This document shows positions 92 to 58,040 of a stretch of 58,047 nucleotides of DNA, in pieces. Under the pieces are notes generated by a model. The model was not told the origin of the DNA and made no database searches. It saw nothing but the letters and a program-made list of their open reading frames with translations. The translations under genes were made by a program, and so were the position numbers. Every line of letters begins with the position of its first letter. Position 1 is the stretch's first letter. This DNA comes from a virus (taxonomy: Duplodnaviria > Caudoviricetes), in IMG/VR virus record IMGVR_UViG_3300048582_000144, positions 1-58,047 of that record; one strand, 5' to 3'.

Positions 92-180
92 AGCGAACGC
101 TCAAGTGGAGCTACCGCCGCGCAAGACTCCGAAAAACAAACAGGACGCTTCCGGCGGTTAGCTCTCACGACTTGTTCTCC
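92..180 (-). mobile_element. attC-like recombination site
   Basis: Minus strand: R'' GGAGAAC ... R' GTTCGCT. Arms GTG-GAGCTA-CCGCCG versus GTGAGAGCTAACCGCCG pair with two extra-helical bases and an unpaired R-L spacer. Confidence 0.88.
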
Positions 181-215
181 ATCTTTTGAACCACCAAACA
201 ACACCGAATACACCA

Positions 216-524
216 ATGAAATTCCGTAAGAAACCAGTAATCATCGAAGCGATTCAATTCACGCTCGAAACCATGAATCAGTGCTACAACTTTGTAACGT
301 GCAACCGCGCCGCAGATTGGGGGGACGATGACGGCGAAGGGAACGCTTCGCCGATCCTCAAGATTCAAACTCTCGAAGGAGTGATGACCGCTCAAATTGG
401 AGACTGGATCATCAAAGGAGTGAAGGGCGAGTGCTATCCGTGCAAGCCCGACATATTTGAGCTGACCTACGAGCCAGCAGATTCTTTGGAGAACAGAGAA
501 TTATCCCAACCGAAACCCGAATAA
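216..524 (+). CDS. conserved phage hypothetical protein (KKPV.IEA.Q / TLEG / GDWIIKGVKGE.YPCKPDIF type), cassette-borne
   Basis: Widespread phage motif set. Gene lies between GTTCTCC (174-180) and GGAGAAC (488-494); its stop codon is inside the attI-like site. Confidence 0.8.
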   Translation: MKFRKKPVIIEAIQFTLETMNQCYNFVTCNRAADWGDDDGEGNASPILKIQTLEGVMTAQIGDWIIKGVKGECYPCKPDIFELTYEPADSLENRELSQPKPE

Positions 525-530
525 TTATCC
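488..530 (-). mobile_element. attI-like site 1
   Basis: Minus strand GGATAAT-TCTCT-GTTCTCC (L box, 5-nt spacer, R box) plus a second GGATAAT 24 nt upstream; 492-530 matches 2787-2825 at 36/39 nt; no attC hairpin. Confidence 0.7.
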
Positions 531-535
531 AACCC

Positions 536-2056
536 ATGATCCACAACGACAACTGGGACGACCCAACCGAAGCGCCGGAACTCCAAGCGCCAGCCGCGCC
601 ATCGCCTCAATACCGCCGCGACATCCCCGCCGAGGCCGACGACGTGATGCGAGCCCTGCCGCACGCGCTAGGACCAGAAAAGAGCCTGCTTTCCTCAATG
701 CTCCAGGACCCGCAGGAGTTCATCGGCGTGGCCGCCGAAGAAAAGCTCACGCCCGCGCATTTCTACCTGCCCTCACACGCCACGCTCTACGGAGTTCTCG
801 TTGAACTGTTCGAGTCCGGGCAGGAGATCGAATTGGTGAGCATGATTCAAAAACTCATCGACCGCGGCCTACTCGACCGCATTGGAGGACCTGCCACGCT
901 GACCGACCTCTACACGTATTCACCCAGCCCCGGCTATTTCCGCCACCACCTCCAGCACGTCAAAGACAAGTTCGTCCTCCGGTCGATCATCCAGAGATCC
1001 AACGAGGCCATCGCGCAAGCCTACGACCAGCCCGACGAGGTGGCCGAACTCCTCGACCAGACAGAGGCCGCCATCCTCGCCATCCGCGAGACACAGGAAA
1101 CCCGCATTACAACTAGCCTGAAGGCCACTGTGGACGAGTGCCTCGATGACATTCGCCGGATCATCGAGGGTGACAAGGAAGCCAATGGTATCTCAACCGG
1201 ATTTGAAGTGCTGGACCATCTTGGGTGCTACCTGAAGCCAGCGGAGATGTTCGTGATCGCCGCCCGGCCGTCGATGGGGAAGACATCGCTCATGATGAAC
1301 ATCGTGGAACACCTCGCCATCGGAGAGTCCCGCCGGGGAATGGTTTTCAGCGTGGAGATGCGAAAGAAGCAGCTCGTGCAAAACCTTATCAACTCACGCG
1401 CCAAGTTCAATCTGGCCGCTGTCACGCGCGGACAGGTCGCCAACAAAGGCGACCTCCAGAGGATCCAGCGGGCGTCCATCGAAATCGCATCCGCTCACGC
1501 GAACCTGATCATCGACGACCGATCAGAACTCTCCATCGGCCAACTCCGAGCCGCCGCCCGCCGCGAGCACCGCAAGGCTCCGCTCCAATGGATCGCCATC
1601 GACTACCTCCAGCTCATGAAGAGCGGGTCCCGCCAATCCCGGGACAACAGAGAGCGCGAGGTTGCAGAAATCTCCGCCGGCATCAAATCCGTCTGCAAGG
1701 AACTCGGAATCCCGGCCATCGTCCTCGCCCAGCTCAACCGCGGACCTGAAGGACGGACAGGGAAGAACCTCGGGAAACCTCGCATGAGTGACCTCCGCGA
1801 GTCGGGAGCGCTTGAACAGGACGCCGACATGATCGGCCTGCTTTACCGAGAGGCATACTACGCCGCCGACGAGGAGGCAAAAGAAGCCGCCCAGGGTGTC
1901 GCACAGCTCGACCTAGCGAAGAACCGGAACGGAGCCACAGGCACCGCACCACTGACATTCATCGCGGAACTCATGCGCTTTGAGTCAGGGCACCCAGCCA
2001 AAGAACAACCCGACATGTTTGCACCCAAGACCGCCAAGAACCGATTAGACGACTGA
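536..2056 (+). CDS. dnaB: replicative DNA helicase
   Basis: LPH..PE N-terminal domain, Walker A AARPSMGKT, IDYLQLM, LAQLNR, SDLRESGALEQDAD, KNRNG. Confidence 0.97.
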   Translation: MIHNDNWDDPTEAPELQAPAAPSPQYRRDIPAEADDVMRALPHALGPEKSLLSSMLQDPQEFIGVAAEEKLTPAHFYLPSHATLYGVLVELFESGQEIELVSMIQKLIDRGLLDRIGGPATLTDLYTYSPSPGYFRHHLQHVKDKFVLRSIIQRSNEAIAQAYDQPDEVAELLDQTEAAILAIRETQETRITTSLKATVDECLDDIRRIIEGDKEANGISTGFEVLDHLGCYLKPAEMFVIAARPSMGKTSLMMNIVEHLAIGESRRGMVFSVEMRKKQLVQNLINSRAKFNLAAVTRGQVANKGDLQRIQRASIEIASAHANLIIDDRSELSIGQLRAAARREHRKAPLQWIAIDYLQLMKSGSRQSRDNREREVAEISAGIKSVCKELGIPAIVLAQLNRGPEGRTGKNLGKPRMSDLRESGALEQDADMIGLLYREAYYAADEEAKEAAQGVAQLDLAKNRNGATGTAPLTFIAELMRFESGHPAKEQPDMFAPKTAKNRLDD

Positions 2057-2060
2057 AACC

Positions 2061-2396
2061 ATGAAAACGAACCTTTGCAACAACCTCGCAGACCTCGCCG
2101 CCGTCCAGGCATCGCGCCGGCGCAACTGGACCAACGGCACGCCCGCCGACCCAGCGATGGAGGAGCGCCACCAAATTGAAATTGCGGACATCCGCGCAAA
2201 ACTTTCGGCCCACGAGAATCAGGTCTCGCAGGGAACCTCCGAACCCCCGCCCGCTCTCACGACACCATCGGGTGGTTGCGTGAGAGCGGCGGGTAAATTT
2301 CTCCGAAGGGCATTCCGGCGATTCTGGAACGCAGAGGTATCCCACGGAGACCGAGAGCGCCAGCCCGATACTCGCTCAACCCACAATCAACCCTAA
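2061..2396 (+). CDS. hypothetical protein ending inside an attC-like site
   Basis: Starts 4 nt after the dnaB stop; crosses AAC 2328-2330 in frame; stop is in the attC loop. Confidence 0.55.
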   Translation: MKTNLCNNLADLAAVQASRRRNWTNGTPADPAMEERHQIEIADIRAKLSAHENQVSQGTSEPPPALTTPSGGCVRAAGKFLRRAFRRFWNAEVSHGDRERQPDTRSTHNQP

Positions 2397-2444
2397 AACT
2401 CAACAGCAAGGCGGGTCTCCGTTGGGATGACCGTCTTGTTAGCC
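2324..2444 (-). mobile_element. attC-like recombination site
   Basis: R'' GGCTAAC ... R' GTTCCAG. Arms GGT-ATCCCA-CGGAGACC versus GGTCATCCCAACGGAGACC; extra-helical G and T on the + (bottom) strand. Confidence 0.9.
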
Positions 2445-2456
2445 TTCTTCTGAATT

Positions 2457-2957: not shown

Positions 2958-3473
2958 ATGAAATCCACATCGAAGCCAGCGACGACCAAGAAAGGGAAGA
3001 CTCCGCCGCCCAAGAAAGCCGCCACCAAACGGGCAAAGAGCGGGGCCGGAAAAGAGCGTCGATTGACCGTACAACACGAACGGTTTGCAGAGCTGGTGGT
3101 TGCGGGCGAAAGCGACACCCGAGCCTACATCAAGTCTGGATGCGGGAAGACAATGGCCAGCGCAGAAAAGAACGCTTGGCGAGTGAGGGAAATTGAGGGA
3201 GTTAAAAACAGGATTGCCGAACTCAGGAAGCCGCAGACCAAGAAAACCCTGATGTCCAAGGACATGAAGCGGGGGATTGCCATGGAGATCGCCAGCAATC
3301 CGGCGAAGTCGGACATGGCGAGAATTCGGGCGATGGAACTGGATGCCAAGCTCGCCGGACACTTCGAACCCGACCGGGTGGAAGTCGAGACCGGCCCCTA
3401 CACGCTGGAAAGCATCCGAGAGAGAGCGAAGACGGTGGCAAGCCTGATGTCCCTCGCCCACACCGTGCAATGA
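2958..3473 (+). CDS. terS: terminase small subunit
   Basis: LT.QHERFAELVV.G....AY HTH motif; overlaps the start of the large terminase. Confidence 0.85.
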   Translation: MKSTSKPATTKKGKTPPPKKAATKRAKSGAGKERRLTVQHERFAELVVAGESDTRAYIKSGCGKTMASAEKNAWRVREIEGVKNRIAELRKPQTKKTLMSKDMKRGIAMEIASNPAKSDMARIRAMELDAKLAGHFEPDRVEVETGPYTLESIRERAKTVASLMSLAHTVQ

Positions 3474-5284
3474 CGGCAGCCGAGACAGTCGCCCGGTATG
3501 CACGCGGGCTGCGAGAAGCCAGCGAAGACGAGATCATGGCTATGGCCCTGAACTCGCCGGCCGTTCACTTCTCCTGCTTCATGGAGATCCGCAACAAGGC
3601 CAACCAGCGGATACAGCCGACCCCGAACATCCTCCAGCTTCGCATGAGCGAGGCTTACGAGACGCTTCGAGACCTGGGCGTGAAGGTCCGCATCATCGTG
3701 GTAAAGCCCCGTCAGGTAGGTTGCAGCTCGTTCGCGTCCTACATCCTGTATCACCACGGGATGCGCGACCCTATTGAGGGAATCAGCATCTCCGACGTTA
3801 AAAAGCACTCGTCGGAGATCATGGACAAGCTGGAAGAGTATGCCGGGGCCGACCGCTACCCGTGGGGGCACCGGATGATCCAATCGTCCACTCACTCGCT
3901 CGAATGGAGCAACGGCACCAAATGGACGGTGGACTCAGCCGAGAACCCGGACGCCGGCGTCGGTGGCACCCGGCAAGGCGGGCACTTCTCGGAGGTTGCC
4001 AAGTGGCCGCAGACGCTCACCCGCAATGATGCGAAAACCATGTCCGCTGTTCTCCCGTCACTCTCCGGCGAGGGATCGGTGGTGTTCGCGGAATCCACGC
4101 CGGAAGGGGCGCAAGGCTGGCTGTATTCCACCTACCTCGAAGCCGTTACCCTCGAACAGTTCCTTGCCAACTGGAAAGCCGGGATACGTCCATCCGAACA
4201 GTGGGTCAAAGTTTTTGCAGCCTGGCACGAGTTCGCCGAGCACTCGAAGCCTGTCTCGGATTACGAGCGGAACCAGATTCTCGAAACGCTGGACGCGACC
4301 GAGAGCGAGGGCATGGCAAAGCACGGATGGACGGTTGAACAGTTGGCTTGGAGGAGGGAGACGATCAAAGCGGTTTGTAACGGCGACCCAAAGACGTTCG
4401 CCTTCTACTACCCCACCGATGACGTTTCGTGCTGGCTGCACTCAGGGACACCGCGTTTCGACCTCGCCAAGCTCGCCGACTGGAAACACCGAGCCGAGAC
4501 CATCCAGCCGGATCGAGGGTTCTTGGTCAAACAGGACACCGGGCACATCCTTTGGCAGCGCATGCGCGACGGAACCGGCGACATCGAAATGTGGGAGGAC
4601 CCGAAGGAAGGCATGGCCTACCTGATCGCCTGCGACCCGGCCACCGGGAAGAGCCAGACGAAAACCGCAGACCCGGACGCCACCAGCATCCTCGTTCTCC
4701 GCGGGAAATACTACGACCCGGACCTGCAACGGACGTTCCCGACGCGCGTTGTCGCCCGGGTGAAAGCCCCGTTCTTCGAGGACGACGACGTGGTCGGCAT
4801 GTATATCGACCGACTCAGCAGGTATTTCGGGCGCTGCATTTGCGCCCTCGAAGTCAATCAAGGGTGGGGAGTGCTCCGCGTGCTCAAGGACGCCAGCGTG
4901 CCGTTGTATAAGCGCATCGTGGAAAATTTGAAGACGAAGCAGACCGAGGAGCAATTCGGATTCAAGCTCGACGACAAGAACCAACGCCGGATGCTCATCG
5001 ACGGGCTCGCCGCCGCTCTCCGCACCGAAGAACTGGACATCCCATGCCCTCACGTCCTGCACCAGCTTATGAAATTCGTGAGGAAACCGAACGGGAGGGC
5101 CGAGGCTGCGCCGGGAGAGCATGACGACGATTGCATGAGTTTGGCTATGGGATGGGAATGTATCCCGATGGCCACCGTGTTTACCCGCCGGGTGGTCCGC
5201 GACGTTGATCCGCCGGACATGGCCAAGCCGGGGCGGAGGCAAAGCGGATGGCGAGTTGTGAACGCCGTGAAACGGAAGTGGTGA
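3470..5284 (+). CDS. terL: terminase large subunit
   Basis: VKPRQVGCS Walker A, HFSEVAKW Walker B, ESTPEG coupling motif, IACDPATG and HDDDCMSLAM nuclease motifs. Confidence 0.92.
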   Translation: MTAAETVARYARGLREASEDEIMAMALNSPAVHFSCFMEIRNKANQRIQPTPNILQLRMSEAYETLRDLGVKVRIIVVKPRQVGCSSFASYILYHHGMRDPIEGISISDVKKHSSEIMDKLEEYAGADRYPWGHRMIQSSTHSLEWSNGTKWTVDSAENPDAGVGGTRQGGHFSEVAKWPQTLTRNDAKTMSAVLPSLSGEGSVVFAESTPEGAQGWLYSTYLEAVTLEQFLANWKAGIRPSEQWVKVFAAWHEFAEHSKPVSDYERNQILETLDATESEGMAKHGWTVEQLAWRRETIKAVCNGDPKTFAFYYPTDDVSCWLHSGTPRFDLAKLADWKHRAETIQPDRGFLVKQDTGHILWQRMRDGTGDIEMWEDPKEGMAYLIACDPATGKSQTKTADPDATSILVLRGKYYDPDLQRTFPTRVVARVKAPFFEDDDVVGMYIDRLSRYFGRCICALEVNQGWGVLRVLKDASVPLYKRIVENLKTKQTEEQFGFKLDDKNQRRMLIDGLAAALRTEELDIPCPHVLHQLMKFVRKPNGRAEAAPGEHDDDCMSLAMGWECIPMATVFTRRVVRDVDPPDMAKPGRRQSGWRVVNAVKRKW

Positions 5285-5335: not shown

Positions 5336-8300
5336 ATGAGCAGCCGCTTTCGCACCCAGACCGGAGTCGAGGACTATCTTTCCAAATTCAAGGCATCCAC
5401 CGCCACCGCCGACCAACAGTCATCCGAGGCCACCGGAGAGCGGGCGCAAGCCGCGTTCGATGCGAGCGCCATGGACAAGGAGCGCCAGCAGCAGCAGGCC
5501 GCCGCCGATGCCCAAGCGAAAGCCGCCCAACGTCAGGCAGACGCGCAGCGCAGGGCCGCCCTCGCGCAAGAGGATGCCCAGCAGGACCTTCGATCCATCC
5601 AGATCGAGCAGCAGCGCCTCACCATCGAGCCGGATTACAAGGCAGCCAGCGATGCCCACGCCCGAGCAAAGGCAGCCCGCGACAAGTTTGCAGACGACCA
5701 GATCGAGCAAAGCGGGGATTTCTGGGTGAGGAAGGACGCCAAGACGGGCGGTATCACGCCGCTGTCAGCGCAGGAGGCGCAGGCCAGGAAGGACGCTCGC
5801 AGGGACGCCGAGAACGCTTTTGCCGAGGAAGAGAAGCGATTCCAGCCCAAGAATCAGGAATGGGAAGCGCTCCAAGCCGCCCGCCGGAAGGCCGAGTTCG
5901 ACCGGCTGAAGATCCAAGAGCGCAGACTGATGGAGAAGGCGGGACTCTCGCCGCAGCAGCAGGACCCGACCGCGGCAGTCACCCCCGAGAACCTGCCAGC
6001 CCCGACGAACGCCACGGAATCCCGCATGCGGTTCTACGCGGACCAGCAACAGGCACGGATGAACACCTACGCGGACCAGCAGGGACGCCCGCGCACCGTC
6101 TCGCCGCTGACCGCGAACCTCGTCAGGCTGGAGATGCAGAAGCGAGCCATCGAGGCCCGCGCCAAGCTCGGAGACATCGCACCCGAGGAAGCCGCAGCGA
6201 AGATCGAGGCGGCCACCACGAAGCAAGCCCAACTCACCGAGCAGGCGAAGGAGCAGGCTCGGACCAGTCTCACAGCGAAGCTCCAAGGGCAGGATCCGGC
6301 GGCCATCGCCGCGGCACCGCCAAAGCCCGCGCCCCGCGAAGCACTCTCCAAGGCGCTGCAAGAGGCGAAGCTGTTCAGTTCTGCCACCGCCGCGATGGGA
6401 CAAGCCACGGACAAAGGCATCCGGCGCAGGCCAGACGGCAACTGGGACCTACCGGCCATGACCCCGCAGCGTGACAACATCATTGAGGCAGCGGTGGGCG
6501 GGATTGTGCAGACCGTCGCCCAAAAGTCCGGTGCCCGTCTCGACTTCGCCGGCATGGGTGACGAGCAGCAGGCAATCCAAGCCGTGTTCCACAAGTTCCA
6601 GCAGGACAACAACCTCAGCGACGAAGAGGTGCAGGCGGCATGGGCCGACCTTGGTAACATCAATCGCAAGTTCGGCAAGGACGAGACCCACCGCGTGCTG
6701 TCCGATGGCTCGCTCCACATCAACGAGGCGAATACCGCATGGCTCGACCCCAACAAGGCCCGCGGCATCATCGCCCGCGCCAAGACCACGCCGGAGGCCA
6801 AGCGCCAGGCGGAAGCCAGACTGCCAGAAAGGCAGGAGACCATGGCCAAAGCCAAGGCCGAGGCCTACGACATGGCATCGGGGGCCAACGTGTTCGGCAA
6901 CGACGTTCCCGCGTTCTCTTCATTCGCCAAGAAGCAAGGCGGGGACCTGCCCGCGGCGGTCAAGGCCTACGAAGACAGGTATCTCAACAAGCGCGGGAAA
7001 GGCCAGATCAAGCTCGACGAGTGGGAAGCGGCATGGACCGCAGGCAAAATGAACGTCATCGAGACTGTTCTAGGCCTTGCCGGAATGGCCGGCATCGAGC
7101 CAGCCAGCCAGGGAGCCGCCGCGTTCTCCGAAGCATCCCAAGGCATCAAGACCGGCGCAGGAGCGGATGGCATCGACTCCGCTGTCATCGAGCAAATCCC
7201 AGCACTTGGAATGCAAGTAGGCCTTGCCCGTGGAGCCGGTGCCGTCGTTGGCGCGGCAACCAAGTCAGCAAAGGCAGCCCAAGCCGCAGGATCCGTCACC
7301 GCCGTTGTGACATCGGGAGCACAATCGGCCGGCATGACCTACGCCGACGAGCGGGCGAACGGAACATCTCACGAAGAGGCACAGGAGAAAGCCCGCAAAT
7401 CCGGCATCAACACCGCGGTCATCACCGGAATTTTCCAAGTGGCAGGCCTAGGAGGCGTCGAGAAGGTCGCCGCTGGCAAGGCCGTTGGTGAAGTGACAAT
7501 GCGCGACATCCTTGGATCCACCACGAAGGCAGAGCTTGCCACCAACACCCGGAGATTTGCCGCGAACGTGCTGAAGGCAACCGCGGGCGAGGCGACGGAA
7601 GAGGGCATCGACGAACTCACCCAAGCGTTCATCATCGCCGACCCCGACACCAACCTCGCCGACGCATGGGGCAATGCCATCGAGGCCGCCAAGATCGGTG
7701 GATTGATCGGTGGAGTCGTGGAGACCGGATCAAAGGCCGTTGGATCAGGCACCACCCCCGAGCAGCGCCACCAGCAGCAGCTCGCCAGCATCGCCCAGAG
7801 GATCCAGACCGATGCCGTCAACCCGGACCTTGTGGCCGATGCCATTGCCGAGATTGACCCGACCGAGCGCGTTCCCACCCCGGACGAACTCAAAGAAGCC
7901 CGCCAGCTTGTCGCCCCGGACCAGGACGCATTCCGCAACCACCAGAAGCAGGCCGAAGCATACAAGGCCGCCGTCGCCGCGAAGGATTGGAAAGGTGCCC
8001 GCGCCATCGACGAAGCGATGCAAGCCGCATTCCCCGACACAGAGACCAACACCGTGCGGGACACTGCCGATGCCGTGCTTCTCGTCAGGGAGCTTGGAGA
8101 ACAGGACGTTGTAACGAAGGACGCTTTTAACCAAGCCCAGGCCGCATTCAACGAGGCGATGGTTTCCGGCGACCGGGAGGCGAAGGCAATGGCCGGCCCG
8201 GAACTCGCAGCCGCTCGAAGCGCCAGGCAAGCACACCTTCAAACTCGCGCGGCCGTCAAGATCGCCAGCGGCATGGAGATCACCGCCCTGACCGATGCCG

Positions 8301-11300
8301 AAGCCCGTGCCATGGGATTCACCCGCGAAGCCGATGGTGGGCTCGCCCCGATGAAGGCCAAGGAGCTTGCCGACAATGGACTGACCGCCCCACTCATGCG
8401 CCCCGCCGCCGATGGCTCCGCGATCCTCACCGACGACGTGGTTGCCACCGTCCGCGCCACCAGCGAGCGCGCCGGCCGCCGCGTGAAGCTCAACGAGCAA
8501 GAAGCCGCGGACCTCGCCCAGAAACGATTTGATGCAGCCAATACCCCACCACCCGCCACCAATGAGCAAGACCAACAAGGACAAAGCCAAGCAGCACCAT
8601 CTCCCCAAGCTCCACAATCCACACCCACCAGTTCGGAATCACCGGGTGGAACTGTTCGAGATGGAACCGGACAGCCCGCCGCAGCATCTTCAGATGGAGC
8701 CGGAGTTGCACCGGAGGCGGCGGTTCAAGAGGTAGAAGACCCGTTCGAGCCGACAGCCGAGGACGAAGCGGCGTTGTTGGCGGAATTGGAAGCGGAGATG
8801 GCGGGAGAGGACGTTGATGTTAACGAAAGCCCGGTTTCTGCAACACAAGAGCCGGAAGCGTCAACGGATGCACCACAAGCGCCGACTCCAGAACCCACCC
8901 GAGCAACCCCGGAATCCATCCGATCCGCCAAGCAGGTTCAAGCCAACATCCAGGCCGCCGTTCCTCGCCTCAAAGGCAAGGTGACCACGCAGGACGGCAC
9001 CCGGCCATCCGGCGGAGTCTTCATTGGCCTCGACGGACGCATGACCATCTCCCCCCGAGACATCGCCGGCGAGATGCAGCGCAATGGGTGGGACGAGGCC
9101 ACAGCCACCCGCATCCTCACCGACCTTGCCGTCAGCCACGAGGTTGCACACATCGCCCAGGTGGATGCACTCCGCGCCCGATGGAAGGAAGAGAAGCCCC
9201 GCATGTCCTTCGAGACATACTTCCTGAAGTTCTACGGCGAGCAATACGCCGAGATGGGAGGAAAGGGAGGCCAGATCGACATCGAGGCTGCCAACATCTA
9301 CGACCCGACCGCAGGGAACCCGCAATGGCAGTCACTCAGCGCCGGCCAGAAGGGAGCGGAGATTTTCCGCATGTTCCTCGAAAACAAGCTCACCGGCACC
9401 ACCAGCGAGCTTTCCCGCGAGATCGAGCGGCAGGGAGTGACGAAGGGATTCATCCAGCTCATCAAGGACGCCATCGCCTACCTGAAAGGCGTGATCGACA
9501 CCCTCCCCGACCAAGCAAAAGCCCACCTCGAGGAACTCGAAGCGTTCTATCGCGAACTCACCCTTTCCCCCGCGTCTCAAAGTGACACAACACCGACGCC
9601 CGAAGAGGCCATCACACCAGACGCCGGGGAATCCCCTTCCAAGCCAGCCAAGAAGCAGATCGACAGCCCCGCCCGCCGCGAGGCGTTCCGCCTGCTTCGC
9701 TCCGGGGAGCTGATCGTCATCGACAAGATCATCGGCGGCAAGATACAGGCCCCGCCCACGGGCATGCTCAAGATCGCCAAAGCGGCCCTCGAAACCGGTA
9801 AGGCCACCCAGAAGCAGCGAGACATGCTGGATTTCTGGGACAACGCCGGATTCAACCAATACATCCCGAAATACGCATTCGGCACCGACTTCAACGGGAA
9901 GGTCGCGCAGGAGCTTCATGGCATGCTCTTCACCCAGGACAAGAGCAACACCGCCTTGGACGATTGGGCAGGACTGCTTGGCGACAAGCTGACCAACGAC
10001 GAAGCCATGCTGGAAGTCATGGGGGAACTCACCCGGATTTCCAAGGGCATCACCACCGAGACCGACGCCCGCAACCCGAACAAGGAGGAGGCAGCACCCG
10101 AGGAGATCGCCGCGGCAGAAGCCGAGGCCAAGGCAGGGAAGAAGGAAGGGACCACACAGGCGAAGCAGGATAAAGCATTCGACGCCGCCCAAGCCAACCC
10201 GAGCGATGCCGCCATTGGCATGGATGCGGCAGACTTCAGCCCTGACATGATCGGCGGGACCATCACCGTGGACGGCGAGCCGATGCTTGTTGCCGACGTT
10301 GAGACGGATTCGATGGGAATCACCACTGCGGTTGTCTTGCAGAACGGCAAGCGGTTCGGGCGGCAGGTTCTCGAAGACGGCGAGGTTGTGTTTGTGGAAG
10401 AGGACGCGCCGGAGGTGGAGGCGGAACCCGTTGACGATCAGGTGCGCGCCGAAGAATCAACGCCGGTTGATGAAACGCCAAGCCCGGTTGAGGAAACTGC
10501 TGCCGAGAAGTTCGATAGAGAGCTTCGCGCAGAACGCCGTGCCGAGCGACTGGAAATGATGCAGCGGCCCATTGCACAGCAGTCTCCGAAAGTCTGGTAT
10601 GACGAGGAAGCCGCCAAACGTGGGATCGGCCCCGACGAACTCACCGCTGACGAGATCCGAGTTTACAAGGGCATGTGGAACAGTGCCCGAAAGGCCGCTC
10701 TAGCCAAGAACGAGCCGGTTATCGACAACATGCAGGACGACGGGAAGCCGCCAAAGAAAGGCTACGTTCGGCGCGGCGACATCTGGTATCCGCCAACTCA
10801 GAAGCCCGCCTCTCCAGGAAAATCAGTCGAAAACCTGATTCAAGAATACCGGAAGATCCTTCCCGACTGGAGATCCAAAGAAGACACCGATGACGACATC
10901 AAGTTCGCCATGCGAACGATCAAGAGACTAGCAAAGCCAGATGTAAACCAGAAGGCAGCGACCGAGGCATTGAAGCTGATTCCAGAGTTCGGGACCGATG
11001 CCCCGCTCTACCACCTTGGGTTGAAGGACGTGCCCAAAACCAAAACGGAATGGATGCCCGACGTGAGCAAGCGGACAAGCCCGCTCGACAAGGAGGACTT
11101 CCTTCAGGAGATGAAGGACTTTCTCGCTCCTCCCAAGAAGCCCGACCTGCCCTCGCCAATTACCTACATGCAGCTCAACGCCAGATTCCGGGGCGTCGAT
11201 ATGCCCAAGGACATCACCGCGAGATACAACAAGGTTTACAACCGACTTGGCGCGAAGGGTATCCAGTGGCTCGCCAACACGATCCGCCGGGACGCAAAGT

Positions 11301-34593: not shown

Positions 34594-34599
34594 CCTTTG

Positions 34600-34650
34600 A
34601 AACACCTGTCCCTCGCGAGGGGGACGGGTTTTCCGGGCGAAAGGCAACAC
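34600..34650 (+). repeat. about 50-bp structured leader element, copy 1
   Basis: ACCTGTCCCTC-GCGA-GGGGGACGGGT hairpin, T run, GGCGAAAG..AACAC; near copy at 48401-48451. Confidence 0.8.
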
Positions 34651-34657
34651 CTACACC

Positions 34658-48390: not shown

Positions 48391-48400
48391 CCCACAAAAG

Positions 48401-48451
48401 AAACACCTGTCCCTCGCAAGGGGGGCGGGTTTTGGAGGCGAAAGCCAACAC
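48401..48451 (+). repeat. about 50-bp structured leader element, copy 2
   Basis: ACCTGTCCCTC-GCAA-GGGGGGCGGGT hairpin, T run, GGC-GAAA-GCC, AACAC. Confidence 0.8.
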
Positions 48452-48459
48452 GCACAGAA

Positions 48460-48772: not shown

Positions 48773-48949
48773 ATGAACGACTACGAGATCGTCGCCACCT
48801 ACTCCGACCAGACCCTCGCGGGAGTCATCCGCGACCTGAGCACGGGCAAGGCATGGTGGCCCGATAAATCCCGGCTCCAAGCCGCCATCCACGAACAGAA
48901 CCTCCGCAAACTCCACGAGCACCAACAAGACACACAATCCGAACAATGA
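48773..48949 (+). CDS. hypothetical protein
   Basis: Overlaps the recT start. Confidence 0.5.
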   Translation: MNDYEIVATYSDQTLAGVIRDLSTGKAWWPDKSRLQAAIHEQNLRKLHEHQQDTQSEQ

Positions 48950-50247
48950 GCACAGAACTATCCACACAGCCGATGACCATCATCGACTCCCCCGCCGTCG
49001 CCAACCTGATGAATCCGCAGCGGTTCAATCAGATGATGATGATCGCCCAAACCATGGCTTCCGCCTCACTCATCCCCGAACATCTCCTTGGCCGCAAGAA
49101 GGGCGGCACGATGGAATGGTTCACCGCCGATGAAGTCCGAGCCAACTGCTTCCTCGTCGTCAACCAAGCATTCCGCTGGGAAATGGATCCGTTCGCTGTC
49201 GCGGCGGAAACCTACGTCGTCGGCGGCAAGCTGGGATTTCAAGGAAAGCTGGTGAAGGCAGCCGTCATGTCGCTGGCCGGCGTCGAACTCCGCCAGGCGT
49301 TCAACTCCAAACAAGGGCCGGACCTCGCCATCGTCGTTTACTCGACCCCGAACAACCGCGATGTCACCGAGTCCGAGCGGATCAAGATCGCCGCCTATGC
49401 CGAGACGGAAGACCGCGTTGCCATGAGTGAACTGGAGTTCTCCGGAATCAAGGCTGTCCGAGTCTCGGTTGCCCAAGCGAAAACCGACAATTCCATGTGG
49501 ACCAAGGATCCCGAGCAGAAGCTGGGTTACACCGGAGCAACAAAATGGGCACGCCGCCACAAGCCACAAATCATCCTTGGCGTACAGACCGACGATGACC
49601 TCGATTCGATGGACATGCGCGAGGCCCGCGGCCACGTTGTCGAACCCACCACTACGAAGGTCATTACTGGCAGCGACAGCACGCCACAGCCCGCCGCAGC
49701 AAAGCCCGCACCCGCAAAGGCACCGAAGGGAGCCAAGGCCGCACCAAAGGCGCAGGAAGCCGAGCCAGAAGCTGATATGCCAGAGCGGATGGACATGGTG
49801 AACGACCTCCGCGATGCCTACCAAGCCGCTGGGGTAAAAACCGGGCCGGAGGCGGAAGCCGTAATGCGCGAACACGGGCTTCTCCCAGTAGGAGTCGGGG
49901 TCGGTGGACTCAAAGACGTAAAACAGCTTTTTGCAATATGGGTGAGACGCGAAGAATTGTTTCCACCGATGGCCCCCCAAGCCATCCACGCCTTTTACAA
50001 AAGCCACACCGTTCGGAGATCCCCCGATGACTCCGAAAAGAAATGGACATGTTGGCAGCTCCAATACGAGGAGGCCGGCGGCGACGGCACAGTCAAGGAT
50101 GCGGTCACGTTCTCCAGCACGTTCGGGAAGATCCTCGACGGGCTCGAAGGTGAGGAAGCGATTCTCCTGACAGTGAAGAGCGGAGAGAAGGGCGATAGCA
50201 TCCAAACGCTGGCTCTCGCGCCAGCAGAGGGGAGGGCCGAAGCATGA
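48946..50247 (+). CDS. recT: RecT-family single-strand annealing protein
   Basis: ANCFLVVNQAFRW.MDPFAVA..TYVV.GKLGFQGKLV; W..DPEQKL.Y....WARRH.P.IILGV.T.DD. Confidence 0.85.
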   Translation: MSTELSTQPMTIIDSPAVANLMNPQRFNQMMMIAQTMASASLIPEHLLGRKKGGTMEWFTADEVRANCFLVVNQAFRWEMDPFAVAAETYVVGGKLGFQGKLVKAAVMSLAGVELRQAFNSKQGPDLAIVVYSTPNNRDVTESERIKIAAYAETEDRVAMSELEFSGIKAVRVSVAQAKTDNSMWTKDPEQKLGYTGATKWARRHKPQIILGVQTDDDLDSMDMREARGHVVEPTTTKVITGSDSTPQPAAAKPAPAKAPKGAKAAPKAQEAEPEADMPERMDMVNDLRDAYQAAGVKTGPEAEAVMREHGLLPVGVGVGGLKDVKQLFAIWVRREELFPPMAPQAIHAFYKSHTVRRSPDDSEKKWTCWQLQYEEAGGDGTVKDAVTFSSTFGKILDGLEGEEAILLTVKSGEKGDSIQTLALAPAEGRAEA

Positions 50248-53857: not shown

Positions 53858-54207
53858 GCACCCGCCAAAAAGTGAACGACAAGTGGACCGTCTATGATCC
53901 GCCGTGGGTTGAGACCGTTCCCAACGAACCATTCCGCTACCGTGTGGAATCAAAATCGTTGTCGGACATTTTCCACTTCGTCGATCTCACCGCCCGCAAC
54001 GGTCACGGTCGTTGTTCCTGCGTATTTTTCCAAATGGTCGCCGAACCAAACTTCCGTCGGCATGGCAACTGGATTCCATACGCCCCTGGTCGCGAGGGAG
54101 TCAGTGAGTGCAAGCATATCCGCGCGGCCTTCGACCATTACCACCTCTACGTCACCTGCCCGATGCTCGCGTCATTCGCAGACGGGATTCCTAATACTTT
54201 ACATTGA
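53854..54207 (+). CDS. SWIM-type zinc finger protein
   Basis: CSC...CKH motif. Confidence 0.7.
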   Translation: MSTRQKVNDKWTVYDPPWVETVPNEPFRYRVESKSLSDIFHFVDLTARNGHGRCSCVFFQMVAEPNFRRHGNWIPYAPGREGVSECKHIRAAFDHYHLYVTCPMLASFADGIPNTLH

Positions 54208-54833
54208 AACCACTTTTGCCGCCCGCCATGGTCCCCACATCACTCAAAGGAAAGGAATTCGAAACGCTGATTCTCGAAGCTGCAAGGCGCGAGGAAGCCA
54301 GTGGAGGATTGACTCTCTCTCGCTACGGCGTGCAAGGCGTCATCTTCGGGGGTAAGACTATTCTCGTCCCCTCACTTCCAGACTTTGATGGATGCTTGGC
54401 CGGCGGGCGGCAAATCATCATCGAGGCAAAGTGCATGCAGGGTGCTTCGTTCCCCCTCAATGACGACAAGTTCAAGAACCGACAGTATGCCCACATGGCA
54501 AAGCGTGCTGAGTTCGGCGCACTATGCTTCCTTCTAATCCACTTCGCGGAACGCCGTCTAATGTCCAAGAACGATCCGGGCATGACAATTGCCGTTCCCG
54601 TGAGTGCCCGCCATCCGTTCTGGATGCTATACGAACAAGGCGAACGCAAAAGCCTCCCGCGCGACGAAGCGCAATCCATTGGGCAAATCGTCCCTTGGAC
54701 CATCCCCAGAGGCTGCCGCAAAGCGCTCCCTGACCTTCTCTCGTTCCTGTGGCCGGAAGCCCGCAGTATCCAACTCGAAACAGCAAAACCAAGCTCTCCC
54801 CAGCCCGGCGAACTCCCCTTGGACAACGACTAA
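54204..54833 (+). CDS. recU: RecU-like Holliday junction resolvase
   Basis: GKEFE, PDFDG....G..IIIEAK, NRQY; stop codon lies inside the first attC. Confidence 0.78.
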   Translation: MKPLLPPAMVPTSLKGKEFETLILEAARREEASGGLTLSRYGVQGVIFGGKTILVPSLPDFDGCLAGGRQIIIEAKCMQGASFPLNDDKFKNRQYAHMAKRAEFGALCFLLIHFAERRLMSKNDPGMTIAVPVSARHPFWMLYEQGERKSLPRDEAQSIGQIVPWTIPRGCRKALPDLLSFLWPEARSIQLETAKPSSPQPGELPLDND

Positions 54834-54910
54834 GCCCATGCACGCCGACCCAAACATATCGAATCCAAGCAGCAACGCCCCCGGCGTTGCATGCGGCGAC
54901 CTTGTTCTGG
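54821..54910 (-). mobile_element. attC-like site (distal end of the array)
   Basis: R'' CCAGAAC ... R' GTTGTCC. Arms GCC-CATGCA-CGCCG versus GCCGCATGCAACGCCG. Confidence 0.85.
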
Positions 54911-55122
54911 ATTGCGATTTCTGCGGTAAGCCTGCCGAGTCCGTGGTAACTCATCAAGGCACAGGTAAAATATGGAGAGCCTGCACCGAGTGCATCGACA
55001 TCCGGCGCATGAGGCGGCGGTCTACGCCCTACAACGTAGAAATTATCCAGAACGATCAAGGCCATGCGATCCGGACCGGGAGCGCCGCGCCGCCAACACC
55101 CAGAACTAACGAATCACCCTGA
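54838..55122 (+). CDS. small zinc-finger-like protein (CDFC...CTEC), cassette-borne
   Basis: Starts inside one attC and stops inside the next; core ends GTTCTGG/CCAGAAC. Confidence 0.6.
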   Translation: MHADPNISNPSSNAPGVACGDLVLDCDFCGKPAESVVTHQGTGKIWRACTECIDIRRMRRRSTPYNVEIIQNDQGHAIRTGSAAPPTPRTNESP

Positions 55123-55171
55123 AAATCCAACAAGGGAGCGGGTCCGGGTCGCATGCGCTGCCTTGTTATGC
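55047..55171 (-). mobile_element. attC-like site
   Basis: R'' GCATAAC ... R' GTTCTGG. Arms GC-CATGCGATCCGGACC versus GCGCATGCGACCCGGACC. Confidence 0.87.
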
Positions 55172-55203
55172 TCTTCGAGAATCTCCGAAAACTATACGAC
55201 AAT

Positions 55204-55401
55204 ATGAAAAAATCAACACTCTACGCATTAATCCAAGGGGCCTCAATAGGTGTGGTTGTTCTCACGCTCGGGTATAATCCGCTGCAATGGGAGTGGTGGG
55301 CATTAATTATCTCGCTGAACGTAGCTTTGGTTTGCAGTTCTCTGCATAACGCCGATGTGGATACGCGGCGCGCAGATGCCCGAACTCAACAAGGCGGCTA
55401 G
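55204..55401 (+). CDS. small two-helix membrane protein, cassette-borne
   Basis: Core ends GTTATGC/GCATAAC; AT-rich. Confidence 0.6.
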   Translation: MKKSTLYALIQGASIGVVVLTLGYNPLQWEWWALIISLNVALVCSSLHNADVDTRRADARTQQGG

Positions 55402-55430
55402 TCGCCGTCGCCAGCATGCACTTGTTAGCG
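55344..55430 (-). mobile_element. attC-like site, chimeric
   Basis: 55347-55410 is identical to 57028-57091, but the last part of the arm differs and pairs poorly; R'' CGCTAAC. Confidence 0.8.
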
Positions 55431-55474
55431 GGCCGAATTACCGAACAACTCAACCAACACGAAAGACCAAAACT

Positions 55475-55702
55475 ATGGGACAAGCCAAACAGCGCGGAAC
55501 CTTCGAGGAACGCCGCCAGCAATCAATCGACCGCGCCGAAGCGGAGAGGCTGGAACGCCAACGCAAGGAAGCGGAATGGTGGAACTCTCTCACCGACGAG
55601 CAAAAGGAAAACGTGCGCCAGAACCGCGCGCGCCGCGCCCGAAACATGCAGGCAATGGCCGCGTGGATGGGTCTTGGCTACTCACTCGGCGGGAGGTTCT
55701 AA
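55475..55702 (+). CDS. small phage protein (MGQAK.RGTFEER motif), cassette-borne
   Basis: Core ends GTTAGCG/CGCTAAC. Confidence 0.7.
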   Translation: MGQAKQRGTFEERRQQSIDRAEAERLERQRKEAEWWNSLTDEQKENVRQNRARRARNMQAMAAWMGLGYSLGGRF

Positions 55703-55706
55703 GTCC

Positions 55707-55821
55707 CGCTAACGCTCAAACTGAGCCATGCGGTTGCTTGGCGCGATCAGTGCCCGCACGCAGTGCGGAAATAGCACTGATCGTGACAAGCAATCGCATT
55801 GGCTCCAGTGCTTTGTTAGGC
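55707..55821 (-). mobile_element. attC site (long, well paired)
   Basis: R'' GCCTAAC, R' GTTAGCG. CTG-AGCCA-TGCGGTTGCTTGGCGCGATCAGTGC versus CTGGAGCCAATGCGATTGCTTGTCACGATCAGTGC. Confidence 0.93.
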
Positions 55822-56178
55822 TCATTTTTCATTTAGCTCGTTGTTATGGCGTTCGATTTCTTTAAGGTATCCGCTTTCAGGACGATGCCTCTGCCTCAAT
55901 CGATTCATAATCTCTTCTCTATCGTCCTTTGATCGGGGTCGTTCTGGAAAAAAGTAGAAAATTGACCGGTAATACAGCTCGCTGGTGATACTCTCACGCG
56001 GTTTGTGGTCATGCGTGCTCTCGTATCCAATAATGTAGAGCGTGGAGTGTAATCCGGCGGGATATAAAATGGGACCACGCCTTGCGCCGACTGCGTTCGC
56101 GCCGGCAAAAATCGGAGCGGCAAGATACGCGAACCCCACGGCGGCGCACGTCAGGATGATTACGGCTCTGCGTTTCAT
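55822..56178 (-). CDS. exported/membrane hypothetical protein, canonical-orientation cassette
   Basis: GTTAGGC-AGAAGA-ATG start; stop abuts R''; hydrophobic N-terminus. Confidence 0.75.
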   Translation of the reverse strand: MKRRAVIILTCAAVGFAYLAAPIFAGANAVGARRGPILYPAGLHSTLYIIGYESTHDHKPRESITSELYYRSIFYFFPERPRSKDDREEIMNRLRQRHRPESGYLKEIERHNNELNEK

Positions 56179-56184
56179 TCTTCT

Positions 56185-56311
56185 GCCTAACGTCAAAGGC
56201 CTGGCACCCCTGATCGGGAGCGAGCCTTCGACTGTGGTGTAAGGTTTATCATGCCAGTGGTCAATCGAACTCAAAGCGTATCAGGGGTTGTCCAGCGCCG
56301 GCTTGTTGGGC
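56185..56311 (-). mobile_element. attC site
   Basis: R'' GCCCAAC, R' GTTAGGC. GGC-CTGG-CA-CCCCTGAT versus GGCGCTGGACAACCCCTGAT. Confidence 0.9.
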
Positions 56312-56315
56312 TGTC

Positions 56316-56675
56316 TTATTGAGTCGGTCCATCGGCCACGAGTAAAGATGATCCTGCCTGTAGAACCAAGGCGGAATGGAACCAGATGAGAATCAATCCA
56401 AGACCGATTCCGCTAATCAATGTCCACCGCTTCGAGAACGATCCCGTATCATCGCGTTCACTCCAGATGGTGTATACTACCCATGCGAGTGGAATCAGAA
56501 TGAGGGTAAAACCCCAATTCCGGACGAATAGCATTAGAAGTGGAATATCGGCGAACTCATCAGGATATCCTCTGACTTTGAGTGTGACACCGAGCATGAG
56601 GGAACCTGTCATAATGATGCCCGCATGTAGGGCTCCAATAATCCTCTGCAATCGATACTCATCACGAAAGATCAT
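56316..56675 (-). CDS. three-helix membrane protein, canonical-orientation cassette
   Basis: Core ends GTTGGGC/GCCCAAC; stop 4 nt from R''. Confidence 0.78.
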   Translation of the reverse strand: MIFRDEYRLQRIIGALHAGIIMTGSLMLGVTLKVRGYPDEFADIPLLMLFVRNWGFTLILIPLAWVVYTIWSERDDTGSFSKRWTLISGIGLGLILIWFHSALVLQAGSSLLVADGPTQ

Positions 56676-56697
56676 CGAGTTAGCTTTCTATTATTTT

Positions 56698-56755
56698 GCC
56701 CAACATCCGCCGATCAGACACGCCGTAGGCGTTGTCTGTATCGCGCTGGTTAGCA
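56698..56755 (-). mobile_element. minimal 58-bp attC site
   Basis: Minus strand TGCTAAC-CAGCG-CGATACAGACAACGCC-TAC-GGCGTGTCTGATCG-GCGGAT-GTTGGGC. Confidence 0.93.
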
Positions 56756-56766
56756 CTCTTCTAAAA

Positions 56767-57030
56767 ATGAACTACTCCACAATAATCGAACGCATCTCTC
56801 CCGACTCACTCAGCCGGGTAGAATACCGTTACTGGCAGCGCGCCGAAATGCGCATGGAACTGGACTGGATAGTCCACCAGACGCGCCCTACAAAACGGCA
56901 CGGCTGGCGTCTTGAAAAACGCTGGTCGCGCCTGCAATCGCGAAACAACAACATGGCCAGAGAGGAGCCACCGCAGGACGTAAAAGACGAACTGCGCAAG
57001 AAAATCAACGATGCGCTCTCTTTCTGCTAA
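56767..57030 (+). CDS. hypothetical protein (RPTKRHGW motif), cassette-borne
   Basis: Core ends GTTAGCA/TGCTAAC; stop TAA lies within the core. Confidence 0.7.
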   Translation: MNYSTIIERISPDSLSRVEYRYWQRAEMRMELDWIVHQTRPTKRHGWRLEKRWSRLQSRNNNMAREEPPQDVKDELRKKINDALSFC

Positions 57031-57111
57031 CGCCGATGTGGATACGCGGCGCGCAGATGCCCGAACTCAACAAGGCGGCTAGTCGCCGTCGTATCCCACG
57101 ACTTGTTCCCC
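57025..57111 (-). mobile_element. attC site
   Basis: R'' GGGGAAC, R' GTTAGCA. GTGG-ATACG-CGGCG versus GTGGGATACGACGGCG. Confidence 0.9.
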
Positions 57112-57140
57112 GTTGCCCGAATCACCGAAAGACTAACATC

Positions 57141-57953
57141 ATGGAAAACTCTAAAATCGAATGGACTCACCACACCTTCAATCCGTGGAACGGATGCACG
57201 AAGGTATCGCCCGGCTGTCTGCACTGCTACGCCGAAACGCTCATGGATACCCGATATGGTCGGGTGAAGTGGGGAAAAGGACAGCCACGCTCTCGCACGG
57301 CTGCTGAAAACTGGCGCAAGCCGAAGCAATGGAACAAAGCCGCCGACGGTGCCGCCGAGCGTCCACGGGTGTTCTGCGCGTCACTGGCTGACTGGCTCGA
57401 CGACGAGGTGCCGATTGAGTGGCTGGCGGATCTGCTGGAACTCATCGCGGCAACTCCGAATCTTGACTGGCTGCTACTCACCAAACGCCCCGAAAACTGG
57501 TATCGCCGCGTGAGCCTCGTAGATGGCGAAATGGCGGAAAGCTGGATCGACTGCATCGACATGCCCGAGCGTGGAACTATCCCCGAAAACGTATGGATCG
57601 GAACAAGCGCGGAAGATCAAACGCGATGGGATGAGCGGATGCCGCTACTCATGGAAATTCCCGCCCGCGTCCGCTTCGTGAGTGCGGAGCCGCTGGTCGG
57701 CAGAATCCACATGGGCGAGCTTCGCCCCGACTGGCTGATCGTCGGCGGTGAGAGTGGACCAGGCGCAAGGCCCATGGAACGCGAGTGGGTGGAAATCCTC
57801 TGCGACCAATGCGACGACCGAACCGCCTTCCACTTCAAGCAGTGGGGAGGCGTGGACAAGAAAGCCACTGGCCGCGTGCTGAATGGCCGGACATGGGACG
57901 AATTACCATCTTCGGGGAACGCCGAGTCCATCCACCCCGAATCGAAGCCTTAA
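57141..57953 (+). CDS. phage Gp37/Gp68 (DUF5131) radical-SAM-like protein, cassette-borne
   Basis: SKIEWT..TFNPW.GCTKVSPGC.HCYA, LLTKRP, SAEPL, GGESG..ARPM, FKQWGG; core ends GTTCCCC/GGGGAAC. Confidence 0.92.
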   Translation: MENSKIEWTHHTFNPWNGCTKVSPGCLHCYAETLMDTRYGRVKWGKGQPRSRTAAENWRKPKQWNKAADGAAERPRVFCASLADWLDDEVPIEWLADLLELIAATPNLDWLLLTKRPENWYRRVSLVDGEMAESWIDCIDMPERGTIPENVWIGTSAEDQTRWDERMPLLMEIPARVRFVSAEPLVGRIHMGELRPDWLIVGGESGPGARPMEREWVEILCDQCDDRTAFHFKQWGGVDKKATGRVLNGRTWDELPSSGNAESIHPESKP

Positions 57954-58040
57954 AATCATGAACCAGAATCAAACTGAATCGAAGCCGCCAAGCGTTGAAG
58001 AACCCCGTAATGAGGGGTTGGATGGGACGCCTTGTTCGGC
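57914..58040 (-). mobile_element. attC site
   Basis: R'' GCCGAAC, R' GTTCCCC. GTCC-ATCCA-CCCC versus GTCCCATCCAACCCC; the loop holds one stop and one start codon. Confidence 0.88.

Follow-up and report, generated by a model that had tools for sequence, protein, structure and literature searches.

A putative integrase-less cassette array in a tailed phage genome, with genes on the attC bottom strand and a regular reading frame at the crossover

The integrons of bacteria, be they of class 1 or sedentary chromosomal ones, carry cassettes in which a gene on the top strand is followed by its attC site and is driven by the Pc promoter, and the two recognised integron layouts concern, in the literature accessible to us, only the orientation of intI relative to attC. 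Arrays of attC sites are also present in the genomes of temperate and virulent phages, some together with IntI; 17 clusters of attC sites lacking integron integrases (CALINs), with at least two sites each, were reported with DNA methyltransferases among their cargo, and phage sites were recombined by IntI1 in assays (accessible parts of Qi et al. 2023, PMC9892861). Here we analyse the attC array of a window of 58,047 bp, which is the whole linear IMG/VR record IMGVR_UViG_3300048582_000144 of a tailed phage (CheckV completeness of 96%). It resembles the phage CALINs of Qi et al. 2023 in being an attC array on a phage, but it has ten sites and a polarity that proves systematic; the parts of that study that were covered leave the strand of the genes relative to attC unstated and do not mention a regularity of frame. 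Phages were already known to carry attC sites, CALINs, and complete integrons; it is the cassette design that appears to be new. We read the array as an integrase-less phage array (CALIN) of canonical attC sites with reversed cassettes, in which attC precedes the gene, and with a frame convention at the AA/C crossover (the slash marks the crossover throughout); judged from sequence, we give this reading a probability of roughly 0.7.

Ten imperfect palindromes of the form AAC...GTT (attC a, c, and e to l) lie near the ends of the window. In the metagenomic relatives L118, L120, and L121, RecU is followed after 1-1.5 kb by DnaB, and by this synteny the two window ends are contiguous in the phage, so that both belong to one region. 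AAC and GTT boxes are present in 10/10 sites, and the RYYY part of the box is loose (e.g., CTGGAAC and GGGGAAC). The accessible part of Nivina 2016 assigns the extrahelical bases of attC to positions 16 and 23/24 of the bottom strand, both on the L'' arm and with 6 bp between them; the distal base is a conserved T and the proximal one usually a G, and the crossover falls within the AAC of R', between A and C. Constrained folds of the window sites revealed single-base bulges on the 3' arm of the + strand in 8/10 sites, at distances of 16/17 and 23/24 nt from its end, with T at 23/24. Since these positions match, the + strand is the bottom strand of attC and the left AA/C the predicted crossover. 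The AAC and GTT boxes, the imperfect hairpin, and the extrahelical bases that make up attC anatomy are all found in the window, and R and L boxes, unpaired spacer, extrahelical bases, and variable loop are arranged as in bacterial integrons.

An earlier scan with gapped arms was too strict (3 matches only), and a structural template derived from the published anatomy was used instead. In its 5' arm, AAC and a spacer of 4 to 7 nt are followed by an L box of 3 bp, a stem of 6 bp, and another stem of 5 bp or more; in the 3' arm, an additional base flanks the 6-bp stem on either side, the elements are otherwise the same, and a spacer of 4 to 6 nt leads to GTT. At most one bad pair in 14 is tolerated in a strict match. 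This strict template found six sites in the window, all with the + strand as the bottom strand and none on the - strand, compared to 3 matches in all in 20 Markov shuffles of the window, both strands summed. All strict sites have a 3-bp L box, two single-base bulges 6 bp apart, and T at 23/24. Of the remaining four, f, g, and i were found with a relaxed template and j by folding.

On the + strand, the sites are as follows. attC a (92-180; R' AGCGAAC, R'' GTTCTCC) passes the strict template with 14/14 Watson-Crick pairs, has bulged T16 and T23 in the constrained fold, and contains a stop in the frame of the AAC (frame 0) at 159-161. attC c (2324-2444; CTGGAAC...GTTAGCC; bulged G16 and T23) is supported by the strict template and by folding, whereas attC e (54821-54910; GGACAAC...GTTCTGG), again with 14/14 pairs in the strict template, is not seen in an unconstrained fold, owing to a competing hairpin. 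attC f (55047-55171; CCAGAAC...GTTATGC; relaxed template and folds) is deviant, with a 4-nt bulge on its 3' arm. attC h (55707-55821; CGCTAAC...GTTAGGC; strict template) forms the best hairpin of the set, at -42 kcal/mol. attC i (56185-56311; GCCTAAC...GTTGGGC; fold and relaxed template) has three bulges, at 16, 21, and 24, and attC j (56698-56755; GCCCAAC...GTTAGCA; bulged T17 and T24; fold only) is a minimal site of 58 nt that is beyond the limits of the strict detector. attC k (57025-57111; TGCTAAC...GTTCCCC; 14/14 pairs) and attC l (57914-58040; GGGGAAC...GTTCGGC) are both strict matches. In the hybrid site g (55344-55430; relaxed template, folds, and repeat D6), the first 64 nt, starting at TAAC, match 57028-57091 in attC k exactly (repeat D6, 100%), but the right arm differs from that of k and derives from another site; g is probably defective. 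The ends of the ORFs (open reading frames) upstream of these two sites, at 55340-55350 and 57021-57031, differ mainly by one extra A (TGCATAAC versus TGCTAAC), which turns the in-box TAA stop at k into an in-frame His-Asn read-through at g.

By the definition of IntegronFinder, in the part of its description that was accessible, a CALIN requires two or more attC sites that share a strand and are spaced by less than 4 kb, and no integron integrase in the vicinity. The window has eight sites in 54821-58040 and two in 92-2444, all on one strand, and a six-frame search with PF00589 and TIGR02249 for a tyrosine recombinase or intI gave no match at E <= 1 in this 96%-complete record, in which a small gap remains. 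The intI gene that characterizes a complete integron was thus not found. An exact 30-nt pattern from attC k gave no match in viral contigs, and blastn-short with the ten window sites found no match in any of the fetched loci.

The initial annotation of this DNA had described seven of nine complete cassettes with their gene on the + strand, opposite to the polarity of normal cassettes. This observation is confirmed: with units delimited between successive AA/C points, 7/9 cassettes have a + strand ORF and 2/9 a - strand ORF, and it is the + strand that carries the bulged bases of the bottom strand. A gene on the top strand followed by attC, as in a canonical cassette, is found in two units only. 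The unit after a holds a gene of the phrog_419 family (216-524, 102 residues; E 8.9e-33 over residues 1-92) and the unit after c an ORF of 120 residues (2457-2819; weak match to phrog_8792, E 5.5e-6). In unit e-f, a zinc-ribbon-like ORF of 94 residues (54838-55122) starts in the loop of e, reads the AAC at 55051 as Asn, and stops in f; in unit f-g, an ORF of 82 residues (55153-55401) starts in the 3' arm of f, reads the AAC at 55348 as Asn, and stops in g. The ORF of unit g-h (55475-55702, 75 residues) has its stop 4 nt ahead of the R' box of h, and the self-contained ORF of unit j-k (56767-57030, 87 residues) has its TAA stop within the R' box of k (CTAA/C). Unit k-l encodes a DUF5131 (Gp37/Gp68) protein of 270 residues (57141-57953; PF07505, E 4.2e-79 over residues 3-256), and a further ORF that starts in the loop of l (57958-58047) runs off the contig end. 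Between dnaB and attC c, an ORF of 111 residues (2061-2396, + strand) reads the AAC at 2328 as Asn and stops in c. The canonical-polarity genes on the - strand are that of unit h-i (55822-56178, 118 residues, with a signal-peptide-like N-terminus), whose stop abuts the R'' box of h, and that of unit i-j (56316-56675, 119 residues), which has no family match. The former has homologues of likewise 118 residues at 80% and 75% identity; for its bacterial context, a match of 37% identity was found in 1/401 sampled Verrucomicrobiota genomes, with no attC adjoining. The claim that genes start inside attC (54838 and 57958) held as well, and the start at 55153 also lies within a site.

These ORFs are real genes on their strand: with a codon model from the phage's long genes, every array ORF, including both - strand genes, scores best in its own frame, and the family matches to DUF5131, phrog_419, RecU-like proteins, and DnaB are all on the + strand. 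A PHROG scan of the small window ORFs gave no family, and tblastn of the array ORFs of the window and of a DUF5131-bearing phage locus (L005) against bacterial IntI loci found no shared cassette.

To see whether the detector itself favors this polarity, compare 80 bacterial loci that encode relatives of an IntI-like protein, oriented with intI on the + strand. Here, nearly all arrays that the template finds have + as the bottom strand and lie, as in the regular geometry, upstream of intI; the 13-site array of L094 lies on the opposite strand and downstream of intI, as in the known inverted-integrase type. In canonical arrays (e.g., L064, L081, L117, and L094), codon usage points to coding on the top strand in 26/28 inter-site segments, and Pfam matched 3 families among 32 top-strand ORFs and 0 among 27 bottom-strand ORFs. 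Since geometry, codon usage, and Pfam agree, the detector gives the textbook polarity where it is expected. A few contigs of bacterial metagenome-assembled genomes (L059, L062, L079, and part of L038; labeled Burkholderiales, Polyangiaceae, Solibacter, and Didemnitutus) have the phage type of coding polarity. One of these, L059, is probably the same element as the viral locus L134, because the sites are spaced alike, and some of these arrays may be binned phage or prophage DNA.

The same architecture is present in other phages. Among 19 viral contigs with a DUF5131 homologue, five loci from four records have at least two strict sites (L005 and L006 being one element), and the gene strand is the bottom strand in all of them; these contigs share nothing else with the window. 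In L005, an IntI-like gene lies directly to the right of the array on the same strand, and its product has TIGR02249 as the best NCBIfam match (E 7.9e-63, positions 2-313 of 315). Relatives of this IntI point to Opitutaceae-like Verrucomicrobiota for L005, not necessarily for the phage of the window. A profile of its homologues retrieved 37 further viral loci with full-length IntI-like genes. In these 38 IntI-bearing phage loci, the bottom strand is the intI strand at 84 unique strict sites and the other strand at 2, and in six phage loci without IntI in the stretch examined (the window included), the count is 21 to 0. Pooled over the 44 loci, the gene strand is the bottom strand in 105/107 strict sites, and the distal bulge is a T in 103/105; one shuffle of all 667 kb of phage loci gave two matches.

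Codon usage supports bottom-strand coding in 15/15 segments of the phage loci without IntI and in 48/49 segments of the IntI-bearing ones, a tally in which L144 and L145, which are one element, are counted twice. Homology decides the strand: in a PHROG scan at E <= 1e-5, from which the DUF5131 gene and the window ORFs were excluded, the longest ORFs that 52 inter-site segments have on the bottom strand match 45 families, whereas the 49 longest ORFs of the opposite strand match none. The bottom-strand cargo comprises DNA methyltransferases, Mom-like proteins, PAPS reductase, HNH nucleases, and, once, the integrase itself. The IntI-bearing arrays have a regular attI-proximal geometry, with each inter-site segment filled by a bottom-strand gene, and the arrangement of array, attI side, and intI is that of bacterial integrons. 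It is the cassette that differs: the phage ones are mostly attC followed by a gene on the bottom strand, reading toward intI. Genes and intI are likewise co-oriented in the inverted-integrase integrons of the Treponema type, but in these, as in L094, the intI strand carries the top strand of attC and the array is downstream of intI, whereas in the phages the intI strand carries the bottom strand and the array is upstream. Chromosomal integrons contain a reverse-oriented minority, e.g., toxin-antitoxin cassettes with their own promoters, whereas in the phage arrays reversal is the rule (7/9, 48/49, and 15/15). A search of the literature outside subscription journals and supplements found neither bottom-strand-coding arrays nor a rule for the frame at the crossover, and an earlier description is possible. 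In L005, at least six consecutive ORFs (8135-10712) have their starts within or close to attC loops and share one frame across the R'' arm, which gives them similar N-terminal peptides (...SVATGSR, ...LATGSAP, ...VIAGSP, ...LAHGSAP, ...LASGSAV, and ...VASSSAP).

The second regularity concerns the frame in which genes meet the crossover. According to the initial annotation, seven ORFs of the window cross it with AAC in frame as an Asn codon and take their stop from the neighboring site. All seven peptides exist (at 492, 2328, 2787, 54825, 55051, 55348, and 57918), but those at 492 and 2787 lie in a repeat, D10, that is no attC. At real attC sites, five + strand ORFs read the AAC in frame (RecU at e and the ORFs at f, g, l, and c), and of the other two, one ends on the TAA of the k box and one 4 nt before h. 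Five of seven is not evidence on its own, because the codon usage of the window's genes, in which AAC is in frame 0 in 392/718 cases (55%) and AACG in 142/198 (72%), predicts 55 to 72%. The bias becomes apparent at the level of the class, for which the frame with the longest ORF upstream, 70 codons being the minimum, was taken at each of 105 unique strict sites from 35 phage loci: the AAC is read through in frame 0 in 53 cases and in frame 1 or 2 in none, 17 ORFs have a stop in the box (16 TAA/C and 1 TGA/AC), and 35 sites have no such ORF. Against a generous null of 72%, 53/53 has a binomial p of 2.7e-8, and with a limit of 50 codons the read-through frames are 57:1:2. The statistical frame bias thus holds for the class, as does the uptake of the stop from the neighboring site, while the window alone behaves as expected from its codons. 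As a control at the other end of these sites, the frames in which GTT is read by ORFs with a start upstream of the box are flat (23:25:18, pooled loci). In canonical arrays as a further control, 17/59 ORFs reach the box, with read-through frames of 7:2:2 (Fisher p = 5e-4 versus 53:0).

A frame-0 stop is present inside 99/105 phage sites, the median tail being 13 codons long, and stops in the other frames are found in 38/68 (frame 1) and 52/99 (frame 2). In canonical bacterial sites of similar length, 35/59 have a frame-0 stop (p = 6e-8 versus the phage sites). Furthermore, the stop is kept in 47/52 phage sites that no frame-0 ORF crosses (Fisher p = 2e-4 versus 35/59), and this high rate even in uncrossed sites fits the prediction of a shared frame convention. 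The annotation's statement that nearly every site has a stop in the AAC frame is borne out by these counts and, for the window, by 9/10 attC sites, the exception being attC h, the sole window site without an internal frame-0 stop. At the other end of the genes, 66/94 possible ORF starts in the phage loci lie inside an attC.

What the sites contribute to proteins can be seen from their C-termini. In an alignment of 18 DUF5131 homologues, a conserved end (...LDGRTWDELP) is followed by 0 to 20 unrelated residues; the window tail, SSGN/AESIHPESKP and stop, is encoded by attC l, and that of L003, EN/AKVADPKDSVH and stop, by a short attC whose bulges lie at 18 and 23. In L002 (~6910-6960), the DUF5131 tail PEN-AEVTGAKDSVQ and stop is homologous to the attC-encoded tail of L003; the attC of L002 is decayed, its left half surviving as coding sequence while the right arm and the GTT box are gone. 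RecU ends on ...QPTLFP and stop in L118 (no attC), on ...QPTLFEN/A and stop in L122 (attC at the stop), and on ...LPLDN/D and stop in the window, where attC e supplies the last two codons and the stop (N-D-stop). By the C-termini of the relatives, attC therefore sits at the exact end of the functional RecU and supplies its last residues and stop.

Between RecU and DnaB, L118 and L120 have other genes and no attC; in L121, six sites follow DnaB. The RecU-like Holliday-junction resolvase of the window (54204-54833, + strand; PF03838, E 1.6e-7; phrog_843, E 6.5e-14) and the DnaB-like replicative helicase (536-2056, + strand; PF03796, E 2.5e-78) were considered as cassettes themselves, and this was rejected, both being syntenic backbone genes in relatives without attC sites. 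By their synteny, RecU and DnaB are backbone genes flanked by arrays, and the arrays occupy hot spots of accessory genes. Among viral contigs, relatives of DnaB were found in one Mu-like contig only, which has no array. The swapping of C-terminal tails by shuffling, as proposed in the initial annotation, is not supported: an all-against-all comparison of 74 crossing ORFs gave one informative homologous pair, RecU. The broader idea of the initial annotation, that phage genes were themselves converted into cassettes, is speculation, and its interpretation as a whole is partly supported.

The label "attI-like" for the sites at 492 and 2787 is not supported. They lie in D10, a repeat of 59 nt on the + strand with copies at 477-535 and 2772-2830 (83% identical), which gives two otherwise unrelated proteins a common last 15 residues: the phrog_419-family protein, whose last 15 residues are encoded in copy 1, ends on ...LEN-RELSQPKPE, and the 120-residue protein, which ends in copy 2, on ...LAN-RELSRPEPE. 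D10 does not fold as attC, and as its similarity begins 16 nt to the left of the AAC, no crossover bounds it there; blastn-short gave no match in any of the fetched loci. It has an R box, a 5-nt spacer, and a partial inverted L-like box, a loose motif that is common in all loci. The motif (AAC-N4-6-RTTNTCC) is also found at the attI position of L005, but being common everywhere it says little for D10 as attI. The 8-mer AATTATCC has five + strand copies (499, 523, 2794, 2818, and 55041) and none on the - strand, all of them in the array region, two per D10 repeat and one immediately ahead of the R' box of f. Units of the form TTATCC(C/A)A resemble the consensus of DnaA boxes, and one D10 copy lies directly upstream of dnaB.

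In our model, the early replication and recombination region of a near-complete phage genome holds a CALIN of ten sites, which flank dnaB in the interval from the RecU-like gene to the terminase genes. The recombinogenic bottom strand coincides with the coding strand of the phage, and most cassettes are thereby reversed relative to bacterial ones. A unit extends from the C after one AA/C to the AA of the next and consists of attC followed by the gene; attC serves as the 5' leader of the gene, often including its start codon, and the 3' end of the gene abuts the next crossover. There, the gene ends by one of two routes, either on a TAA formed by the R' box or by reading AA/C as Asn and stopping at the frame-0 stop inside the next attC. 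Transcription presumably occurs with the phage operon, considering that the genes are co-oriented and that no intI and no clear Pc were found. Units may move by IntI recombination at AA/C, with IntI provided in trans by the host or a co-infecting phage, and selection may keep the frame convention so that any neighbor can end any gene. With the start codon so often placed within the hairpin (66/94), it is imaginable that ribosomes finishing the upstream tail open the attC hairpin that hides the next start. The more far-reaching view that phages run their own reversed integron with a universal frame convention, of which the window would be an integrase-less member that needs IntI in trans, is about an even bet.

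Several points weigh against the reading as a CALIN with reversed cassettes and a frame convention. The attC template is rule-based and was written once the window sites had been seen. The proximal bulged base is a C in 76/105 phage sites and not the usual G; in bacterial sites it is a C in 24/59, and the distal base is a T in 50/59 compared to 103/105 in phages. The 5/7 frame-0 ORFs of the window match the expectation from codon usage, and sites within an array may share descent, so that the pooled counts are not fully independent. The IntI-like protein of L005, with 212.7 bits, is below the curated TIGR02249 cut-off of 265, and a terminase (phrog_2) was matched in 1/5 IntI-bearing viral records, two of which are 91% and 96% complete according to CheckV. 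Direct evidence of movement is thin, consisting of the 64-nt identity of g and k from TAAC and one homologous pair, and the similarity of g and k partly continues just upstream of the 64 nt. Finally, we infer from sequence that the sites are active and that the array is transcribed, translated, and recombined.

The alternatives differ in how much of the evidence they would leave standing. It could be that the polarity is real and the frame regularity a by-product of compact genomes, codon bias, and the genes' own stops. This would suit the 55% of AAC and 72% of AACG in frame 0 in the window's genes, the unremarkable 5/7, and the preference for frame 0 also in canonical arrays (7/11 read-through), yet it hardly accommodates the 53/53 of the phage class even against 72%, the unbiased frames on the GTT side of the same sites, and the stops kept in uncrossed phage sites, and we consider it rather unlikely. 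A somewhat lower likelihood is given to host attC elements that inserted singly at AAC/GTT ends of phage genes (attG-type) and later lost their cargo, in which case the phage genes would not be cassettes. IntI-mediated insertion at GWT is documented in the accessible part of a preprint (Loot et al., 10.1101/2022.09.11.507474), and such insertion could account for attC sites placed right where a backbone gene ends, as with RecU; L118, L122, and the window differ in the presence of attC exactly at the RecU stop, L118 and L120 lack attC between RecU and DnaB, and the array contains two canonical-polarity cassettes. According to the same source, attG insertions have no orientation bias and carry canonical cassettes, whereas the phage arrays are co-oriented, with bottom-strand genes. 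Insertion of this type may therefore explain the sites that abut backbone genes, though not the 105/107 sites of one orientation in 44 loci; nor does it fit the many ORF starts inside attC, the regular IntI-adjacent arrays with every inter-site segment filled by a bottom-strand gene, and cassettes down to 226-363 nt, which offer no space for lost cargo.

Capture of a fragment of a host chromosomal integron by illegitimate recombination, as in Vibrio phages, is reported in the accessible part of Qi et al. 2023 (PMC9892861) and would fit a window that has no integrase. It is very improbable here, the bottom-strand cargo being typical of phages and co-oriented with the phage operon, the sites abutting backbone RecU and DnaB, and the same polarity recurring in unrelated phages, unlike in the bacterial arrays examined. 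Least credible of all is that the hairpins are regulatory structures of the phage, such as terminators or processing sites: they are intergenic, and some are among the 12 terminator-like sites found in the window (5.4 expected), but AAC and GTT boxes, a 3-bp L box, bulges 6 bp apart, and T at 23/24 are not explained in this way, no Rfam family was matched, and the architecture is identical beside IntI-like genes in 38 loci.

If the reading as reversed cassettes with a frame convention is true, it bears on the integron rule that the gene lies on the top strand of attC and is read from Pc, since a large class of opposite polarity would show that the polarity of sites and that of genes are separable. 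Phage accessory genes, likely anti-restriction genes (methyltransferases, Mom-like proteins, HNH nucleases, and DUF5131), would then form a separate cassette pool, and phage annotation would have to delimit cassettes differently, the attC that belongs to a gene being the upstream one. With a frame stop in ~94% of attC sites, any cassette would be translationally compatible with any neighbor, a concrete case of a frame convention that permits shuffling of modules without loss of translation. The phages would also provide material on the origin of cassettes, as attC abuts backbone genes in some relatives only.

The remainder of the window is a phage genome in which nearly all long ORFs lie on the + strand. 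A GC-rich hairpin followed by a T run (2834-2867, + strand), terminator-like in the fold of 2781-2870 and in sequence, closes the early region ahead of the small (TerS, 2958-3473, + strand) and large (TerL, 3470-5284, + strand) terminase subunit genes. Further genes encode RecT (48946-50247), a portal protein, tail-fibre-like proteins, and a head-like protein. A promoter scan of the window was at background (1 site, 2.2 expected), and Rfam, which contains no attC family, and tRNA scans of the window gave no match. In sequencing runs, sampled words of the window were shared at just 0.05-0.06, and no RNA run was among the matches listed. Downstream of the terminase genes, an ORF of 5,517 residues (5336-21889, + strand), whose first 1,221 residues matched no family in a PHROG scan, has internal repeats at 12712-13011 and 16027-16326 (300 nt at 96% identity). 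A 57-nt direct repeat (34599-34655 and 48400-48456, 86% identity) comprises a GC-rich hairpin followed by T-rich sequence and resembles a recurring terminator or regulatory element at two module boundaries.

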